This document shows positions 4,109 through 18,619 of a DNA stretch of 22,328 nt, one piece after another. Made by a program: the position numbers and the translations under genes. A model generated the notes under the pieces. It searched no databases, was not told where the DNA came from, and saw nothing but the letters and a program-made list of their open reading frames with translations. Positions within the stretch are counted from its first letter, which is position 1; each line of letters starts with the position of its first letter. The stretch is from a virus (Duplodnaviria > Heunggongvirae > Uroviricota > Caudoviricetes), in the IMG/VR virus record IMGVR_UViG_648861009_000003; one strand, written 5' to 3'.

Positions 4109-4368
4109 TTATACCTCTGAATCAATATCAACCTGGTGGTGAGCAATGGTTTCAACCATGTACCGGATGTGTTCTGCCATGCGCTCCTGAAACTCAACAT
4201 CGTCATCAAACGCACGGGTAATGGCTTTTTTGCTGGCCCCGTGGCGTTGCAAATGATCGATGCATAGCGATTCAAACAGGTGCTGGGGCAGGCCTTTTTC
4301 CATGTCGTCTGCCAGTTCTGCCTCTTTCTCTTTCACGGGTCGATCTGCTGGTAGTGACGCGCCCAGCT
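4109..4368 (-). CDS. gam: gam, 3' portion (copy A) abutting the N-gap; 5' end corrupted by indels
   Basis: Translation ...[74 protein letters not shown] matches the lambda Gam C-terminus; the last ~40 nt before the gap carry extra bases relative to copy B. Confidence 0.75.
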
Positions 4369-4814
4369 NNNNNNNNNNNNNNNNNNNNNNNNNNNNNNNN
4401 NNNNNNNNNNNNNNNNNNNNNNNNNNNNNNNNNNNNNNNNNNNNNNNNNNNNNNNNNNNNNNNNNNNNNNNNNNNNNNNNNNNNNNNNNNNNNNNNNNNN
4501 NNNNNNNNNNNNNNNNNNNNNNNNNNNNNNNNNNNNNNNNNNNNNNNNNNNNNNNNNNNNNNNNNNNNNNNNNNNNNNNNNNNNNNNNNNNNNNNNNNNN
4601 NNNNNNNNNNNNNNNNNNNNNNNNNNNNNNNNNNNNNNNNNNNNNNNNNNNNNNNNNNNNNNNNNNNNNNNNNNNNNNNNNNNNNNNNNNNNNNNNNNNN
4701 NNNNNNNNNNNNNNNNNNNNNNNNNNNNNNNNNNNNNNNNNNNNNNNNNNNNNNNNNNNNNNNNNNNNNNNNNNNNNNNNNNNNNNNNNNNNNNNNNNNN
4801 NNNNNNNNNNNNNN
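4369..4814. other. Run of 446 N (assembly/scaffold gap)
   Basis: Contiguous N characters; both flanks are copies of the same gam sequence. Confidence 0.95.
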
Positions 4815-5111
4815 CCGTTTATACCTCTGAATCAATATCAACCTGGTGTGAAGCAATGGTTTCAACCATGTACCGGATGTGTTCTGCCATGCGCTCCTGA
4901 AACTCACATCGTCATCAACGCACGGGTAATGGCTTTTTGCTGGCCCGTGGCGTTGCAAATGATCGATGCATAGCGATTCAAACAGGTGCTGGGGCAGGCC
5001 TTTTTCCATGTCGTCTGCCAGTTCTGCCTCTTTCTCTTCACGGGCGATCTGCTGGTAGTGACGCGCCCAGCTCTGAGCCTCAAGACGATCCTGAATGTAA
5101 TAAGCGTTCAT
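4815..5111 (-). CDS. gam: gam, copy B: intact start ([34 protein letters not shown]...) but 3' part frameshifted by single-base deletions near the gap
   Basis: The N-terminal 56 aa match short-form lambda Gam; downstream the sequence is the same as 4105..4368 but with at least 6 one-base deletions. No in-frame upstream ATG for a long Gam form. Confidence 0.75.
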
Positions 5112-5186: not shown

Positions 5187-5477
5187 TTAGTGATTCAGAC
5201 CGTTGCCGCGTCCGTCGAGAAAAACTTCCACGAGCAAGTCACGGGTATAAGTGCGCTCAATGCCGCGATGCAGATAAAGTCGTCCGCGTAAATTAGCTGA
5301 TGCAGTCCAGGTACCATCTTTGCGTTTGACCAGCATTCCTGGCATGACCGCACCGCGATTAACGGTCTGCGTTCCGTAATGTTGATGAACCATAAAAACT
5401 CCTGCCCGTAAGCTGGGCTGCTGAACATATAAAGACTTCTGCGCGTATTCAGGCGGTGGATGGCCGCCGGTTGTCAT
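5187..5477 (-). CDS. Hypothetical early-left protein (96 aa), first ORF downstream of the putative pL
   Basis: ORF on the early-left strand upstream of gam, in the kil/cIII position; no family recognised; start codon uncertain (internal Met at MVHQHYG or MPGMLVK possible). Confidence 0.3.
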   Translation of the reverse strand: MTTGGHPPPEYAQKSLYVQQPSLRAGVFMVHQHYGTQTVNRGAVMPGMLVKRKDGTWTASANLRGRLYLHRGIERTYTRDLLVEVFLDGRGNGLNH

Positions 5478-5644
5478 AACTAAGCCGCCTCGTTGAAGCG
5501 ACTAAGGTATGAAATGTTGAGTTGATTTCAGCTGGTCACACCGACGTTCACGCGTCCGTTTCATCCCTCGCACTCCCCGAAGCCTGCTGAAATTCAAGCT
5601 GCGGATCTAAGCGGTCATCGCAACGGTGAATCAGGTAGTTGCCG

Positions 5645-5750
5645 TATCGTTGTGTTGTTGCGATGAACTTATTTAAAACTATAGTTGTTTTATCGTCAAC
5701 AACAAAAGTTGTTTTATTGGTTGTTTTAGATATAACTGGTTGTATTTAGG
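5645..5750 (-). promoter_or_regulatory. Candidate oL/pL operator-promoter region
   Basis: Cluster of TGGTTGT(T)/AACAAC motifs (5652-5660, 5683-5690, 5699-5704, 5708-5714, 5719-5726, 5738-5745) resembling the inverted half-sites in the cI-cro intergenic region. Confidence 0.35.
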
Positions 5751-5837
5751 ATGGATTTATTTTGTGACTTGAATCGCATAGCGATAACTGAAGCGAGGTT
5801 ATGGTGGTTTTTTTAACGGTGTGTGTGATGAGGGGAG

Positions 5838-5867
5838 GGCAAAAGAAAACCCGGCACGGTGGCCGGG
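5838..5867 (-). terminator. Rho-independent terminator downstream of the accessory operon
   Basis: Minus-strand RNA would form the GC-rich hairpin cccggccaccgtgccggg followed by ttttctttt, 8 nt after the stop of the 310-aa gene. Confidence 0.55.
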
Positions 5868-5875
5868 TAGCATCA

Positions 5876-6808
5876 CTATTCGATTTTTTTAACCATGTAG
5901 TTACGTCGTGATGTTCCTAATCTTTCATTGTGAATCTCAGAAACGCTTACTACGAGCGATATTCGTTCACCAACTTTATATTTACTTTGAATTTCTCCTA
6001 ACATATCAATCGGATAAGAAGCCTTTATTTTTCCAAGCTCGCTTGCAATCTCCAATTTCCCGTACATGGATAAAATAGCAAGTTCGCCTGATATATGCTC
6101 ATCCGGTAGCTGAATGACCTTCGTTAAAGCTAAGCGAGCATTCAGTTTTTTTATATCTTCTGAAGAAATTGACACTTGTCTGGTACCATCACTTAAAGGT
6201 CCAATCCAAGTAAGATCAAAGTTAAGACTATATTTTTCGCACTCATTTATGATGTTTTTTAGGTTAGCTGTTGATTGCGAACCAATTTCGGCAATTTTAG
6301 CCGTGAATGTTTCTTCATCAATGGATGAGAGTAGTGCAAAAATCTCCTTAACAGCATGACTGGATACTGTTTCGATGAGCTCGCAAGAACCAGTAGAAAA
6401 AGTAACACCTAACTTCGTCGAACCTGGACGCAAGTCTGCCAATCTCATGTCTAATGATTTTTTAACATCAATCGGCACACGACTAGAATCTTTCCCAGAT
6501 CCAAGTCGGTAAACTGCTTTCTGTACAAGGGATGCGAGATTACCTGAAATTACAGATAGAATATCTAACGGAATAGACCCGAAATCGACCAAAACACCTT
6601 TTAATCTCAACTCCATGAAATCACGTAAAGGATGTTGGTTATCGATTGCACGTTGTCTCTCTCGGAGATCGCTCAGATGGGAGTCAAGTGATCTAAATAT
6701 AATGTCATCAGCAAATGATCTCCCCTTATTTTGAGCAAGCAGATCCACATCGCGTTGAATGAACGCAATTCGCTCCTTGAGGGAGTTGAATGTTTTTTCT
6801 TCGCTCAT
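5876..6808 (-). CDS. Unknown 310-aa protein, second gene of the repressor-linked accessory operon
   Basis: Long ORF with no family recognised; start overlaps the upstream NTase-like gene by 4 nt (ATGA), implying translational coupling; contains R-x4-H (RSLDSH) and R-x5-H (RAIDNQH) strings that are too common to count as evidence of HEPN. Confidence 0.75.
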   Translation of the reverse strand: MSEEKTFNSLKERIAFIQRDVDLLAQNKGRSFADDIIFRSLDSHLSDLRERQRAIDNQHPLRDFMELRLKGVLVDFGSIPLDILSVISGNLASLVQKAVYRLGSGKDSSRVPIDVKKSLDMRLADLRPGSTKLGVTFSTGSCELIETVSSHAVKEIFALLSSIDEETFTAKIAEIGSQSTANLKNIINECEKYSLNFDLTWIGPLSDGTRQVSISSEDIKKLNARLALTKVIQLPDEHISGELAILSMYGKLEIASELGKIKASYPIDMLGEIQSKYKVGERISLVVSVSEIHNERLGTSRRNYMVKKIE

Positions 6809-7278
6809 AACATTACCCTCACGAGGCCTTTAGGATTCTCCTTCCGATCAAAACCAAACCACCCTCTCCAGTAACTTCGCCTTTCACTATAATCGATTTC
6901 TGGATGATTTTCAGGCAGCAAAAGAACGTCAATGCTGTAGTTTTCTTTAATAAAATCTCTATTTAACAATGAGCTGACCAATGGCATCAGCGTGTTTGGC
7001 AAAGAGTTTAGGGCCAAATAATCGACGACCACGAGTATATCTATGTCATCAGGTTCAGGTTTCTCTGTAGTGAATGAACCATCGATCCACACTTCAGAGA
7101 AACATAGACACTGCTGATTAACAAGTTTAAATTGCTCAATAAGCTGTATAAAATTACAGTATAGCATACTTCTTCTAACGGATTTTGGGAAGGTGTCGAC
7201 ACAAAGAGACTTGATGCCATCACTATCCATATCATGAAATCCTGCTGTAAGAAGAGGTGGGAAGCTAGGCTTTTCCAT
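6805..7278 (-). CDS. Minimal pol-beta-type nucleotidyltransferase-like protein (157 aa)
   Basis: Motif VWIDGSFTTEKPEPDDIDILVVVD fits the GS-x9-DxD signature of minimal nucleotidyltransferases, with a further acidic residue in YSIDVLLLPE; lies 81 nt downstream of the repressor gene on the same strand. Confidence 0.7.
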   Translation of the reverse strand: MEKPSFPPLLTAGFHDMDSDGIKSLCVDTFPKSVRRSMLYCNFIQLIEQFKLVNQQCLCFSEVWIDGSFTTEKPEPDDIDILVVVDYLALNSLPNTLMPLVSSLLNRDFIKENYSIDVLLLPENHPEIDYSERRSYWRGWFGFDRKENPKGLVRVML

Positions 7279-7359
7279 CCTAAGTCCTTGTTTATGCCAT
7301 ATAGTGTTCTATTTAATATTCTTGAAAAGAGTGTGCCTTAAAAAGCTACAGGCTAATTA

Positions 7360-8049
7360 TTAACCATGCTTCCTGTACGTCTGCGGCATGCTCCCAATAA
7401 CCTTACCGAAGATGAACACCCGGTTCATCTCGTCTTTCTCGATCGGGTCCCACGGTGAGTAGCTTTTGTTATCAGAGATGACCAGCAGCTTATCCTTCAT
7501 CATTTGCAGGCGCTTTACATGGGCTGTGTCGTCGTACAGAAACGCATAGATACCATCACCGTCGAAAGATTTAACTGTGATATCAACGAACAGCAGATCA
7601 CCTGGTTCGATCGTTCCTGACATGCTGTCACCACGCACGTTAATGATGCGGATATTTTCCGCCTTCCTACCATCGAACATGTGACGAGCATCGTCAAACG
7701 AGTACTCAACCGAGCGTAGAACTTCTACAAACTCACGGTTGATGACTCCCGGCCCAGCACTGACTTCTATATCAAGAACGTCAATCTTGAAGTATTTGGA
7801 ATGGCTGACAGTTGATTGTATTGGTTGCACTGTACTGTCTGACATATTTCCAACGCCAGAAGATAACCATTCTGCGCGCACACCCAAAGCGTTCGCGATC
7901 TCCACGATTTTAGTTGTTTGATTAGCTTTCCCTGTTTCGATTTTCTGAATAGCAGCCTGGCTAACCCCGACCAAATCCCCAAGCGCCTTTTGTGTAAGGC
8001 CTCGCGCTAATCTGGCTTCTTTAAGTCTTTCTGAGAGTGTTGTTTTCAT
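7360..8049 (-). CDS. cI: CI-like prophage repressor (HTH_XRE N-terminal domain plus S24 LexA-like peptidase domain)
   Basis: Start taken at MKTTLSERLKEARLARGLTQKALGDLVGVSQAAIQKIETGK (HTH); C-terminal ...INVRGDSMSGTIEPGDLLFVD...HVKRL carries the S24 Ser/Lys autocleavage motifs; divergent from the cro-like gene. Confidence 0.9.
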   Translation of the reverse strand: MKTTLSERLKEARLARGLTQKALGDLVGVSQAAIQKIETGKANQTTKIVEIANALGVRAEWLSSGVGNMSDSTVQPIQSTVSHSKYFKIDVLDIEVSAGPGVINREFVEVLRSVEYSFDDARHMFDGRKAENIRIINVRGDSMSGTIEPGDLLFVDITVKSFDGDGIYAFLYDDTAHVKRLQMMKDKLLVISDNKSYSPWDPIEKDEMNRVFIFGKVIGSMPQTYRKHG

Positions 8050-8054
8050 AGTCC

Positions 8055-8153
8055 AAATGTACAACCAAGGTTTTATTCCATCAAACGAAAATGGTTGTTG
8101 ACTAAAAACAACCATAGTTTTAATCTTGATTCAAATTAACCACGGAGGTTGTT
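8055..8153. promoter_or_regulatory. Candidate oR/pR/pRM region between cI and cro
   Basis: Divergent intergenic region containing the inverted repeat ATGGTTGTT-N7-AACAACCAT (8091..8115) and a further ACAACCA half-site (8061..8067). Confidence 0.5.
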
Positions 8154-8384
8154 ATGAACCCAGCTATCAAAACAGCGATCAATATCGTTGGTTCACAAAA
8201 GAAACTGGGCGCTGCTTGCGAAGTTTCACAGCAGGCCGTCTATAAGTGGCTTCACAACAAAGCAAAGGTATCCCCTGAACATGTCGGCAGCATTGTTACG
8301 GCTACTGGTGGAGTAGTGAAGGCATACCAGATTCGCCCGGATCTTCCGAAGTTGTTTCCACACACCGAAAAGAACGCAGCTTAA
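8154..8384 (+). CDS. cro: Cro-like HTH protein (YdaS family)
   Basis: 76 aa, divergent from the repressor; AINIVGSQKKLGAACEVSQQAVYKWL is an HTH resembling Rac YdaS-type Cro proteins. Confidence 0.8.
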   Translation: MNPAIKTAINIVGSQKKLGAACEVSQQAVYKWLHNKAKVSPEHVGSIVTATGGVVKAYQIRPDLPKLFPHTEKNAA

Positions 8385-8453
8385 ATTTCCATTTCACGCT
8401 CTTTAACAATAAGCAATCAACTTAACAGTCAATTCAAACTAAAGGAGTCAATT

Positions 8454-11254: not shown

Positions 11255-12756
11255 TTAAATTGCATCTGCAAACTCTGGGGTTTTTCGCTCAGGTATAATT
11301 GATGAGTTGCTGTTGTCACTTTTTTTATTTTCATGATTACGAATAGCCAATGACTCATTAAAGTCTTTTGCGACTGCTGTCTCAATAAATTCAATTTCTG
11401 AATCAGAGTGTTTTTTAACAGCTTCTTTGATCTCATCCAGAGTAACATAGAAAAACTCTTTTCTACGATTTACAAGATTGACTCTCTTTTTATCGAAGAC
11501 ATCATGTAGTTTTTTTCTAATGATGGAGCGTCCTCCGAATAAATCATGGCATGTACATCAAAAATAAAAGGAACAGATGCATCACCGAGCTCATTTACAC
11601 GGTCTTGCGGATCAAGACGTCGTGTCATGCCTATTTTATAAACATTCTCCCCAAAAGAACCTATGTTCGAAATAATATAAACATGACCTTGTTTGGTTTG
11701 TTGTGCCATGGATAATGCTCTTTGATGCTTTGATTCAGCCTGCGACAAACTCTGTTCTAGTTCGGCAATGCGATTTTCGAGGCGCTGCTTCATGTCACCA
11801 GTAACTTTTTCCATTTCCTTTCTTGCAGCTTCAATTGCTTTTTTATAACGGCGCTCTTCTGCCTCTGCGTCTTGCATGGCCTTTTCTATTTCTCGTTGTG
11901 CACGCTCCTCCTCTCTCATTTGTGCCCTTATTTCTGCCTGTTCTTCTTTTTCTTTCTGTTTTTGCTCACGATATTCATGGGTAAGCCACAATTCCTCAAG
12001 TTTTTTATTGAGGTATTTAGTGTTTATATATATGTGATTTTGCTCGTTTAGTTTATTTATGGCCTCAAATGCCTTTGTGATGCGTTCTTCCATTTTAGTG
12101 ATGTTTTTCCACGTGCAATTGCTAATTGCAGCATCACATTCATTATTAAATGCTCTAGTAGTTAGCCTGATATTTCTGTCTGTCATTTTTTTACCCTCTG
12201 CTCGAGAGCCTTCAACAGTCCATTGGGTTGTACAATATACTGCGCCAGAGTGGGTTTTATCCCGCAGCATTAATTTCTGTTCATCCCTGATGGATTTTAT
12301 TTTGTTTTTAAATTGCTCTGAATCTTCAAAATTAAAATGAGGTTCGTAAAATCCTAGTTCGGCTAGCTCAACATCTTCTGAATAAATAGAAATTTGCCTT
12401 ACTAGTTTATCATATATTTCTTTCTTCTCTTTATAAGTTCTTCTTAGCTCTTGGATTTGTTTATTGATACCATCCATTTTTTCAATGGTGTTTGTTAGTT
12501 CATTATTGGCATTTTCTTTTACTTTTAGGGATTCTTCTTTTATTATGGAGCATTCTTGCTCTGTTTTCTCAATAAGCTTCTTACATTCTTCTTCTACATT
12601 AAAATAATCTGCAAAGCGAGATTTGTATTCTTCATTTTTTTGATTGCTATCACTTAATTCTAATTGTATTTTTTTGATGCGTTTGATTGCAGCTATATAA
12701 AGAACAAGAACAACCAATAAAAATATGATTGCAAGTAATAGAGGAGTTTGAGTCAT
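11255..12756 (-). CDS. DUF4041/T5orf172 (GIY-YIG-like)-family protein with N-terminal TM helix and long coiled-coil; reading frame broken at a T7 homopolymer (11510..11516)
   Basis: The 428-aa ORF (11470..12756) contains GHVYIISNIGSFGENVYKIGMTRRLDPQDRVNELGDASVPFIFDVHAMIYSEDAPSL; the family-typical C-terminus LHDVFDKKRVNLVNRRKEFFYVTLDEIKEAVKKH... continues in the -1 frame to a stop at 11255. N-terminus LLLAIIFLLVVLVLYIAAI is hydrophobic; the gene is strongly AT-rich. Confidence 0.75.
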
Positions 12757-13246: not shown

Positions 13247-13568
13247 TTGTAACTGTTGTAGCAGCTATGGATGTGATCATCATGGTGTCCATTTACTGGG
13301 GTTGACGACATGATTTATCCGGCGCTATATTCTGTGCGTTGCCGCAAAATCGGCACACGGGATTGGCGTCCCGGGATACTACTCAACGCATACCGCGTTA
13401 AGCGGTTTTTTTGTGCGCTAAGCACGGCTATGCCCAAATTATGGTGGGCTGTGTGAGGGCTTCTTCGGAAGCGCCGGGTTTGAGTAGCCGGTTACGCCAA
13501 CCTTACACAGTTCACCACCAGTCGATTGGCGTCGTTGGTGGTGATGGTTAACCTGATGAGGTGATACT

Positions 13569-14177
13569 ATGACTACTCAATTAGCATTCCACAAAACGAC
13601 GTTTACCCCGATTTGCCACAATAACAGAATTTGGCTTACTGCCACTGAAGTTGGTTTAGCACTGGAATATGCGGACGATAAAGCAGTTCAGCGCATTTAC
13701 TCTCGGCACTCAGATGAATTCACAGATATGATGACAAGGGTGGTCAAAGTGACCACCCCTCGTGGAATGCAGGAGTCTCGAGTATTTAGCCTTCGCGGAG
13801 CCCATTTGATCGCCATGTTTGCTCGTACTCCTGTGGCCAAAGAATTCCGCCGCTGGGTTCTGGATATTCTCGATCGAGAAGTTCAACAATCCCCAATCAC
13901 AAAACAATTCACTGATAACGAACTTTGCACACTCGCCTGGTTATGGCGAGCAAGTGATACGATGTTAACCGCCTGCCAGAACGTTACGCCCCTTCTTCAG
14001 GTCGCAGAGCATCGCGAAGCAGGTAGATTCACTTCAATCGAACAAGAATATCCTCGGATACTCAACAGGGCGCGAGAAATCCTTGCCAGAGAAACGGCGC
14101 ATGTAAAATTCCAACCGTGGCAGGATGATAAGTGGAGTCGTGTGTTACCATATTTCCGTCAGAATCTGTTGCAATAA
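13569..14177 (+). CDS. Bro-N / P22 AR N-terminal domain protein (Roi/antirepressor-like)
   Basis: 202 aa; N-terminal IWLTATEVGLALEYADDKAVQRIYSRH...SRVFSLRGAHLIAMFARTPVAKEFRRWVLDIL fits the Bro-N/AntA-type domain pattern. Confidence 0.75.
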   Translation: MTTQLAFHKTTFTPICHNNRIWLTATEVGLALEYADDKAVQRIYSRHSDEFTDMMTRVVKVTTPRGMQESRVFSLRGAHLIAMFARTPVAKEFRRWVLDILDREVQQSPITKQFTDNELCTLAWLWRASDTMLTACQNVTPLLQVAEHREAGRFTSIEQEYPRILNRAREILARETAHVKFQPWQDDKWSRVLPYFRQNLLQ

Positions 14178-16383: not shown

Positions 16384-16878
16384 TGTTTGAGTTTAATATN
16401 NNNNNNNNNNNNNNNNNNNNNNNNNNNNNNNNNNNNNNNNNNNNNNNNNNNNNNNNNNNNNNNNNNNNNNNNNNNNNNNNNNNNNNNNNNNNNNNNNNNN
16501 NNNNNNNNNNNNNNNNNNNNNNNNNNNNNNNNNNNNNNNNNNNNNNNNNNNNNNNNNNNNNNNNNNNNNNNNNNNNNNNNNNNNNNNNNNNNNNNNNNNN
16601 NNNNNNNNNNNNNNNNNNNNNNNNNNNNNNNNNNNNNNNNNNNNNNNNNNNNNNNNNNNNNNNNNNNNNNNNNNNNNNNNNNNNNNNNNNNNNNNNNNNN
16701 NNNNNNNNNNNNNNNNNNNNNNNNNNNNNNNNNNNNNNNNNNNNNNNNNNNNNNNNNNNNAGAACTTCTTCGCCACCGCTGGGGGCGTCTGCGCTTATAT
16801 CGTTTCCCCGGCTCTGTTTTGACCGATTACCGAATACTGAAGAATTACGCCAAAACACTGACAGGAGCAGGAGTATGA
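16380..16878 (+). CDS. ylcG: ylcG-like small gene split by the N-gap (5' part 16380..16399, 3' part 16761..16878)
   Basis: The 5' flank encodes MMFEFN and the 3' flank encodes [38 protein letters not shown]; joined by about 3 nt they would reconstitute a 46-aa protein matching DLP12 YlcG as I recall it. Confidence 0.6.
16400..16760. other. Run of 361 N (assembly/scaffold gap)
   Basis: Contiguous N characters; the flanks are the two halves of ylcG. Confidence 0.95.
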
Positions 16879-17536: not shown

Positions 17537-18619
17537 TTAGAACTGGTAAACCAGACCTACAGCAACGATGTCATCAGTATCAATACCAGCTGTTTTGGTA
17601 AACTTACTATCGTCAATTAAGTTGATTTTGTAATCAACAAAAGTGGACATGTTTTTATTAAAGTAGTAAGTAGCACCGACATCGACATACTTGACTAAGT
17701 CTCGGTCACCATGAACACCAAGGTCTTTACCTTTTGACTGAAGGTAAGCAACAGATGGGCGCAGACCGAAGTCAAACTGATATTGTGCTACTGCTTCAAA
17801 GTTTTGTGCTTTGTTTGCAATATGGTTATTACCAAAAACGGTCATATTCTGAGTTTCAGAATATGTGGTAGCCAGATAGATATTGTTCGCATCATATTTC
17901 AGGCCTGCAGCCCATACTTCCGCATTTTTGCCGGAGGCATTGAATTTGCTCTTACCATAGGCGACCTGACCGTCAGTGCGATCTGATTTAGCATAGGTTG
18001 CACCCACGCCGAATCCTTCATACTCATAAGTAGTGGAGAAACCGAAACCATCACCATTGGCTTCAGTTACGTCAGTGCGGTCATTTTTACCCTGATACTG
18101 AGCAGCAAAGTTCAGGCCATCGACCAGACCAAAGAAGTCGTTGTTACGATAAGTTGCAACACCAGTAGTGCGACCAGTCATGAACACATCTGTTTGGGTC
18201 CAGGTATCACCACCGAATTCTGGCAGGACGTCAGTCCACGCACCGATGTCGTATGCTACACCGTAGTTACGGCCGTAATCGATTGAGCCGTAATCACCAA
18301 ATTTCAGGCCTGCAAATGCAAGACGGGTTTTGTCTTTGGAAGAACCTTGAGATTCAGCGCGGTTGCCTTTGAATTCATATTCCCACTGACCGAAACCAGT
18401 CAGTTGATCGTTGATTTGGGTTTCACCTTTGAAGCCAAGACGGGCATAAGTAGTATCACCATCATCTGCATCATTAGAGGAGAAGTAGTGCTTAGCATTA
18501 ACTTTCCCGTACAGATCCAGCTTGTTACTGTCTTTATTATAAATTTCAGCTGCCTGAGCAGACATCGCCATCAGTACTGATGCAGCTACAGCAGAAATTG
18601 CCACTGTTAATTTTTTCAT
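17537..18619 (-). CDS. nmpC: Outer-membrane porin NmpC/Lc (OmpC/OmpF/PhoE family), prophage moron
   Basis: 360 aa with a signal peptide ([23 protein letters not shown]), AEIYNKD...LDLYGK start and C-terminal ...VAVGLVYQF, typical of general porins; located between Q and the lysis genes as in DLP12 and PA-2. Confidence 0.95.

Follow-up and report, generated by a model that had tools for sequence, protein, structure and literature searches.

Probable oL and oR operators of a lambda-like repressor switch in a DLP12-like lambdoid prophage of Escherichia coli

The immunity region described here lies in a 22,328-nucleotide stretch of viral DNA (IMG/VR record IMGVR_UViG_648861009_000003), which we call the window and number from its first letter; it is part of a lambdoid Escherichia coli prophage, and an identical 2.8-kb stretch was found in many complete genomes. 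The region contains a divergent repressor/Cro pair, made up of a 229-amino-acid protein with the Pfam domains HTH_3 (helix-turn-helix, HTH) and Peptidase_S24 and a 76-amino-acid protein of the YdaS/P22_Cro type, and copies of the heptamer TGGTTGT, or of its complement ACAACCA, are gathered at both of its ends. Our analysis indicates that these two clusters are, with high probability, the left and right operator regions (oL and oR) of an immunity switch built like that of lambda and carried by a DLP12-like prophage. A first-pass annotation had proposed that they bracket the cI repressor gene and an accessory operon, and this proposal is supported by the matches to an operator matrix, by the exchange of immunity alleles between phages, by the prevalence of the two regions in E. 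coli genomes and by the promoter geometry. All the sequence-level hallmarks of a lambdoid immunity region that we could check are present, and the system is a further example of the lambda and 434 design, not a new mechanism. What we observe directly is where the sites lie, how they are conserved, how they vary together with the repressor allele and how they are set against the promoters.

The number of heptamers in the window would not by itself reveal these regions: six exact copies occur where 3.1 are expected, and at least six were reached in 10 of 100 shuffles, so that the enrichment which had been suggested as a check is not significant as a count. For this reason the clustering of the copies and local shuffling had to be used as tests. 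The placement of the heptamer proved to be clearly non-uniform, with five of the six exact copies falling within 199 non-coding bases (5665-5759 and 8050-8153; p ~3e-10 if placement were uniform). When dinucleotides were shuffled, the two heptamers of the oL stretch compared with 0.03 expected and were matched by 1 of 5000 shuffles, and the three of the oR stretch compared with 0.09 expected and were matched by 0 of 5000.

The right cluster reads exactly as it had been described, with ATGGTTGTT at 8091-8099, a spacer of 7 nucleotides, AACAACCAT at 8107-8115 and a further ACAACCA at 8061-8067. On the left, the exact TGGTTGTT is present, but it lies at 5718-5725 and not, one base off, at 5719-5726; the site given as a variant at 5738-5745 is real, but it holds a second exact TGGTTGT at 5737-5743 and is no variant. 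The two sequences listed as variants at 5683-5690 and 5708-5714 turned out to be the GTTGT halves of full 14-bp sites, OL1 and OL2 respectively. The one listed at 5652-5660 is probably no operator, since it lies outside the cassette that is exchanged between immunity types (see below), in a pL leader which is common to the other type; it forms the 5' arm of a predicted leader hairpin.

The unit bound by a cI dimer is most likely a 14-bp site of the form ACAAC-N4-GTTKT, of which the heptamer ACAACCA represents the consensus half-site with two flanking bases. This is suggested by an alignment of the cI-cro spacers of five genera, for which the window was compared with the relatives Salmonella UPF_BP1, Providencia PSTCR7lys, Erwinia phiEt88 and Klebsiella ST101-KPC2phi6.1. 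The recognition helix is VGVSQAAIQK in the first two of these relatives and VGVSQANIQK in phiEt88, and the Klebsiella phage was included by the DNA homology of its cI and cro. In all of them three 14-mers align, with the outer bases kept but with variation in the inner four and in the DNA that separates the sites; in the window their centres are 24 bp (OR3 to OR2) and 23 bp (OR2 to OR1) apart, and OR2 has one degenerate half, ACGAA. In the 50 half-sites that 25 sites provide, A1 and A4 never vary, whereas A3 occurs in 45, C5 in 46 and C2 in 34 of the 50; position 2 is either C or A, position 6 is nearly free (0.44 bits) and position 7 favours A. The same pattern, with 14-bp sites, outer ACAA...TTGT, conserved outer 5+5 bases and four variable inner ones, is characteristic of phage 434, whose repressor contacts the outer 5+5 bases of its 14-bp operators and not the inner four (PMC1636474).

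The sites vary together with the repressor. The first-pass annotation had predicted that they would set the immunity specificity of the phage, and the existence of two alleles, type A (that of the window and of the phages PhiR34_1, PhiR5_1 and Turner) and type B, supports this prediction. Type B is carried by the phages PhiR30_1, PhiR68_2, Lambda_4C10 and Perceval, which share the flanks of the window at 96-97% identity, PhiR30_1 also sharing its cargo genes at the same identity. The two types differ in two islands only, the left one at 5665-5759 and the right one at 7812-8452. In PhiR30_1 and PhiR68_2 the left island is replaced by a cassette of equal length, and its left junction, at about 5664, is common to all type-B phages. 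The type-B cI has a different DNA-binding domain, with the helix SGVAQPTIWRL, and the type-B oL and oR share a motif of their own, TTGCTATTG. Within an immunity type oL and oR have 9-14 8-mers in common, across the types 0-1. Between the two types the oL cassette, 95 bp long, is exchanged along with oR, cro and the DNA-binding domain of cI. A third immunity allele was considered for PhiR68_2, Lambda_4C10 and Perceval and was rejected, as all three are type B.

Both operator regions are common in the host species, and almost equally so. Among 5426 complete E. coli genomes, 1518 have the oL stretch (1526 places) and 1521 have that of oR (1529 places), and five of five sampled genome loci carry oL and oR at a distance of 0.9-2.4 kb. 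In the O157:H7 strain E32511 the same immunity region resides inside a DLP12-like prophage, beside emrE, ybcK-ybcN and rusA.

An operator matrix was trained solely on oR sites, 12 in number and all taken from the four other genera, with no oL site among them, and was scanned over the 22.3 kb. The five best matches were OR1, OL1, OR3, OL2 and OR2, in this order (scores and positions in Table 1), followed by a match at 6224 (13.5), and the observed numbers of matches were reached by 0 of 1000 first-order Markov sequences at thresholds of 13-19. The matrix finds three oR and two oL sites in nearly all type-A and related loci, including the five E. coli genome loci, and the starts of the oL pair keep a distance of 24 bp, the sole exception among the related loci being a natural deletion variant in E. 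coli L26 with one oL site. In the type-B oL and oR regions no matrix site was found.

Matrix matches also occur in coding sequence, at 6224-6237 (AAGACTATATTTTT, in the gene for a 310-amino-acid protein) and at 7904-7917 (ACGATTTTAGTTGT, score 11.4, in cI). The former is found with the same score of 13.5 in the same gene of the type-B phage PhiR30_1, and the latter encodes the protein stretch TKIVEIANALGV, which is common with type-B repressors. Both are probably chance matches.

Table 1. Features of the immunity region and its surroundings (window coordinates; promoter elements and operators are predictions; score, operator matrix)
Feature	Position	Strand	Sequence	Score	Remarks
exo-bet-gam-kil		-			Leftward early genes
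kil-like gene (FtsZ inhibitor)	5187..5477	-			First gene of the pL-driven leftward operon
oL immunity cassette	5665..5759				95 bp; differs between types A and B; flanks ~97% identical
Putative pL -10	5676-5671	-	TTAAAT		Placed by sequence and pL/pR homology; alternative TAAATA 5670-5675
OL1	5675-5688		AAAACTATAGTTGT	20.3	In pL spacer and -10 edge; second best of window; kept in all relatives
Putative pL -35	5699-5694	-	TTGACG		GTCAAC invariant in five genera; lost with OL2 in E. coli L26
OL2	5699-5712		ACAACAAAAGTTGT	17.3	24 bp centre to centre from OL1; abuts pL -35
Orphan half-site	5718..5724	+	TGGTTGT		12 bp from OL2 centre; partner half not recognisable
Candidate weak OL3	5730..5743		ATATAACTGGTTGT		Only the TGGTTGT half (5737-5743) at consensus; 31 bp from OL2 centre
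Intrinsic terminator	5849..5868	-	TTTTCTTTT		7-bp GC-rich hairpin followed by the sequence given; ends the cI-cargo unit; left edge of slot
Accessory gene 2, PDC-M63B (PADLOC)	5876..6808	-			310 amino acids; start overlaps upstream stop by 4 bp
Accessory gene 1, DUF6932 / PDC-M63A	6805..7278	-			157 amino acids; minimal nucleotidyltransferase, GS-x9-DxD signature
cI repressor	7360..8049	-			229 amino acids; 434-like HTH and LexA-like S24 autopeptidase domain
Right immunity island	7812..8452				No homology between types A and B; comprises N-terminal domain and linker of cI, oR and cro
Putative pRM -10	8061-8056	-	TACATT		Ends 6 nucleotides before the A of the cI ATG
OR3	8061-8074		ACAACCAAGGTTTT	19.7	Overlaps pRM spacer and -10; centre 18.5 bp upstream of cI ATG; kept in relatives
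Putative pRM -35	8084-8079	-	TTGATG		Abuts OR2; TTG kept in relatives
OR2	8085-8098		ACGAAAATGGTTGT	13.7	One consensus half, one weak half; position and sequence kept in relatives
Putative pR -35	8098-8103	+	TTGACT		
OR1	8108-8121		ACAACCATAGTTTT	20.7	In pR spacer, touches -10; best of window
Putative pR -10	8121-8126	+	TAATCT		17 nucleotides from -35; aligns with TATAAT in phiEt88
cro-like gene	8154..8384	+			76 amino acids; YdaS / P22_Cro HTH type; Cro in PhiR phage annotations

The promoter hexamers were placed by alignment across the relatives and are to be read as predictions. Over the block of -35, spacer and -10, pL and pR are identical at 44 of 63 positions. The pattern of TAnnTT, 6-7 nucleotides and ATG at the start of cI is kept in all five genera. 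Because the putative pRM -10 ends 6 nucleotides before the cI ATG, pRM appears to start at the A of this codon and to give a leaderless mRNA. Counted from this presumed start, OR3 is centred at -18.5, OR2 at -42.5 and OR1 at -65.5, so that OR2 is flanked by the -35 hexamer of pRM on one side and that of pR on the other, the two standing back to back.

From this arrangement we infer repressor binding, activation of pRM, leaderless initiation and co-transcription of the genes behind cI. OR1 and OR2 cover the pR spacer and its upstream edge, and a repressor bound there would shut off cro and the rightward early transcription. As OR2 abuts the pRM -35, the bound repressor could also activate pRM, as lambda cI does, and the overlap of OR3 with the pRM -10 would provide negative autoregulation of cI. 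On the left, OL1 and OL2 flank the pL -35 as OR1 and OR2 do at pR, and would serve to repress kil-gam-bet-exo, and the TGGTTGT half-sites upstream of them may act as a weak OL3 or help in looping.

The geometry also bears on the annotation of the repressor. The cI frame is open to an upstream ATG at 8113-8115, which lies inside OR1, and the resulting form of 251 amino acids is given in several GenBank phage records; RefSeq uses the form of 690 nucleotides. We favour the start at 8049 over that at 8115, judging by the promoter geometry and by the conservation of the MKTT(L/F) N-terminus, which is common to the Providencia and Erwinia relatives and has a close variant in Salmonella.

Behind cI lie two adjacent, overlapping accessory genes, which PADLOC matches to PDC-M63A (E 7.4e-43) and PDC-M63B (E 4e-42), the two parts of the candidate defence system PDC-M63. 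The model of the DUF6932 protein has a predicted local distance difference test (pLDDT) value of 96, and its best fold matches in the PDB are MNT antitoxins, although weak ones (TM ~0.3). The GS-x9-DxD signature of DUF6932 is likewise shared with the minimal nucleotidyltransferases (MNT) of HEPN-MNT toxin-antitoxin pairs, but its partner, the 310-amino-acid protein, is not a recognisable HEPN protein. This partner has no Pfam family; its model (pLDDT 75) ends in a C-terminal beta-barrel that resembles oligonucleotide/oligosaccharide-binding (OB) folds, such as those of SSB, IF1 and ExoVII. Sequence searches of the PDB with both proteins returned nothing, and the fold searches returned only weak matches.

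The interval in which the pair sits, from the cI stop codon to the terminator, is hypervariable among strains and phages of the same immunity type: it can be empty or hold PDC-M63, toxin-antitoxin genes of the HipA/HipD or GevT/GevA kind (the latter an ASCH-domain protein with a partner of ~355 amino acids), two small open reading frames or a BamE-like lipoprotein, and in the Klebsiella relative the same slot carries rexA/rexB. Whatever the cargo, the terminator hairpin marks its edge in the Klebsiella phage as well as in every E. coli relative, and the cargo is co-directional with cI at every locus seen. The PDC-M63 pair was also found directly behind unrelated HTH-S24 repressors in Plesiomonas and Pectobacterium prophages; thus the pair tracks the slot downstream of the repressor across immunity types. 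GenBank annotations of the PhiR phages indicate that this slot is already under study by others.

It could be argued that the operators are real and that the accessory pair nevertheless has its own promoter, either within the DUF6932 gene or in the 81 bp that separate this gene from cI (7279-7359), which would make its expression independent of lysogeny. We consider this unlikely, while granting it some weight. The gap is spacious enough for a promoter, the cargo module is swapped as a unit among phages and may carry its own signals, and lambda has a second promoter, pLIT, for rexB. However, the minus strand of the gap gave neither a promoter-like nor a terminator-like match, and the weak promoter-like matches upstream of the 310-amino-acid gene (minus strand, 6932-6904 and 6914-6886) belong to an overall count that is at chance (7 vs 5.5). 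Further, the cargo follows an S24 repressor closely and in the same direction in at least four unrelated repressor contexts, and a single conserved terminator closes the whole unit. It is most likely, to judge by this layout, that the DUF6932 nucleotidyltransferase and its partner would be read through from pRM together with cI in the lysogen.

The anatomy of oL differs from what had been drawn at first, namely a set of heptamers: it is made up rather of two strong 14-bp sites and orphan half-sites. Upstream of OL2 no third full 14-mer gives a matrix match of 6 or more. Half-sites like TGGTTGT are present there, in the same orientation, in all five genera, and in this part TGGTTGTTTT alone is conserved as a block. 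In the window these half-sites lie 12 and 31 bp from the OL2 centre; for the relatives the corresponding distances are 21, 31-32, 41-44 and 53-55 bp. All these distances cluster on a period of 10.5 bp (resultant length 0.83, n=12), a pattern that was picked post hoc. A weak OL3 at 5730-5743 is plausible, given that a half-site occurs 31-32 bp from OL2 in four of the five genera. That oL would instead consist of two full 14-bp sites and an array of same-orientation orphan half-sites (TGGTTGTTTT), unlike the triplet of lambda or 434, seems to us rather doubtful; in such an array cooperative repressor dimers would touch one half-site each, and could nucleate a filament or aid an oL-oR loop that represses pRM. 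Curvature by phased T-tracts may also account for the orphan half-sites, and the evidence does not separate it from a repressor array. As a separate observation, E. coli L26 (NZ_CP146250.1, ~4493-4540) has a deletion of ~24 bp between GTTGTTTTAT repeats, by which OL2 and the pL -35 are gone in an otherwise type-A prophage, and this variant is presumably pL-dead.

At oR, the first-pass annotation had seen the operator in a 25-bp palindrome of two 9-bp arms, ATGGTTGTT-N7-AACAACCAT, which would set the half-sites ~16 bp apart and leave the other heptamers as isolated half-sites. We find this very unlikely, even though all E. coli type-A phages, like the window, have the palindrome perfect over 9+9 bp, and oL has a similar GTTGTT-N8-AACAAC. 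The arms decay in relatives with the same recognition helix (to 5 bp in Klebsiella, and to a left arm GTGTT in Salmonella) while the 14-mers stay intact, and the spacing shifts from N7 in oR to N8 in oL, with one more base in phiEt88, which a rigid dimer site should not tolerate. Moreover, the palindrome would leave the ACAACCA at 8061 unpaired, whereas the 14-mer pairs it with a GTTTT 4 bp away, and half-site centres 14-16 bp apart would lie on different helix faces, unlike in the homologous 434 with its 14-bp sites. The palindrome was rejected as the binding unit on these grounds; it corresponds to the consensus halves of OR2 and OR1 facing each other across the pR -35. It was also flagged by a scan as terminator-like on both strands and rejected as such, as G-C makes up only three of its nine pairs and conservation of the hairpin is lacking.

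It is hardly credible that the shared motifs reflect only the common ancestry of a duplicated pL and pR in AT-rich non-coding DNA, without any repressor binding: the likeness of the two promoter blocks and the ~10.5-bp phasing of the T-rich DNA upstream of OL2, which could be intrinsic curvature, would fit such an origin, but OR3 has the same 14-mer outside the block that pL and pR share, each site has dyad symmetry, changes in the cassette go along with those in the repressor DNA-binding domain in surroundings that are 96-97% identical, and outer 5+5 bases conserved around four free inner ones in five genera are the signature of a dimeric HTH site and not that of a promoter.

Several points weigh against our interpretation of the clusters as oL and oR of a lambda-type switch. 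The co-swap argument rests on two immunity alleles only, and for the co-occurrence of oL and oR across ~1500 genomes the evidence is that their counts are equal and that a small sample of loci has both. The training sites of the relatives were picked by eye, and the window was part of the alignment used for this; the matrix test is therefore independent for oL and not fully so for oR. OR2 scores about the same (13.7) as the coding match at 6224 (13.5), and we call it an operator by its position and conservation, not by its score; OL3 is not convincing as a 14-mer. A simple sigma-70 consensus scan called none of pL, pR and pRM, and two of the predicted -10 hexamers, TAATCT for pR and TTAAAT for pL, are weak. 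As to the cargo, in the one test reported PDC-M63AB gave E. coli NILS69 no protection from 10 virulent phages (10.1101/2024.12.20.629700).

Compared with lambda, the gene order and orientation of the immunity region are the same, and so are the tripartite oR with a centre spacing of 23-24 bp, the position of OR2 near -42 of pRM and of OR3 over the pRM -10, the presence of operators also at pL, the S24 autocleavage repressor and the apparently leaderless cI mRNA. In lambda this geometry lets the repressor bound at OR2 touch sigma region 4 and places OR3 over the -10, with essentially the same spacing as here. The accessory genes too lie between cI and a terminator, the equivalent of tIMM, just inside oL, as in the rexAB slot. 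The operators, however, are 14-bp sites of the 434 type and not 17 bp long, the recognition helix bears no relation to that of lambda, two strong sites instead of three are seen in oL, the cargo is PDC-M63 and not RexAB, Cro belongs to the YdaS type and a YdaT-domain protein takes the 'cII' position. An N gene is also missing leftward of pL, where kil comes first. Three oR and two clear oL operators, as here, are found in 933W, a lambdoid phage carrying Shiga toxin (Stx); its repressor and operator sequences are different.

The closest solved structure is that of the 434 repressor. In a phmmer search against the PDB the N-terminal domain of cI aligns with it without gaps (1per/2or1, E 4.5e-9, residues 5-68 to 2-65), and the glutamines aligned with Q17 and Q28 of 434 are kept. 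The recognition helix is different (SQAAIQK here, TQQSIEQ in 434), with changes at the residues corresponding to Q29, S30, E32 and Q33, and position 5 of the half-site is C here, while in 434 it is G or T. Because of these differences in the recognition helix and at position 5, the immunity is expected to differ from imm434. A literature search gave no description of the operators reported here; the operator strings, GevT/GevA and the PhiR phage names returned nothing relevant.

The surroundings of the switch are those of a lambdoid early region. The kil-like gene has a match to the NCBIfam model 'FtsZ inhibitor protein' (E 9e-16) and is labelled Kil in PhiR5_1 and PhiR30_1; after it, the minus strand holds a non-coding stretch, the terminator, the 310-amino-acid gene, the DUF6932 gene and cI, and on the plus strand the YdaS-type cro is followed by the YdaT-type 'cII', O and P. 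Between pL and kil there is a leader of 190 nucleotides (5478-5668, minus strand), which is kept in both immunity types and has hairpins from its 5' end. It might act in antitermination like the RNA element put of HK022, but its predicted folding is not better than chance (z-score -1.04 against shuffles). An Rfam scan of the whole window gave no match in the operator regions or the pL leader, and a distant DNA search with the leader matched only close E. coli relatives.

Elsewhere in the window, Rfam identifies a C4 antisense RNA, isrK and a c4 a1/b1 target at 13325-13522 (plus strand), directly upstream of a P22-type antirepressor gene with Bro-N and P22_AR_C domains (13569-14177, plus strand). 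The segment 13325-14177 looks like a second immunity module of the same prophage, resembling immI of P1 and P22, and with such a module present the cI/operator pair may not be the sole determinant of immunity and induction behaviour. Two accessory genes of the DLP12-like prophage, both on the minus strand, encode a 428-amino-acid protein with DUF4041 and MUG113 (T5orf172-like) domains (11470-12756) and an OmpC/NmpC-like porin (17537-18619). Runs of masked N lie at 4369-4814, within an open reading frame of the gam region (4272-5111), and at 16400-16760.

The immunity type described here is present in ~28% of complete E. coli genomes, including O157:H7, O26, O104:H4 and ST131 strains. The operator map predicts which prophages and temperate phages would be homoimmune, and types A and B can be distinguished by two short islands. 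For annotators, it points to a cI start at 8049 and not at the upstream ATG at 8115. The interval from cI to the terminator is a repressor-linked cargo slot; if its cargo is truly read from pRM, the genes in this slot would be expressed exactly when the prophage is silent, and this would be useful context for any test of the PDC-M63 pair.

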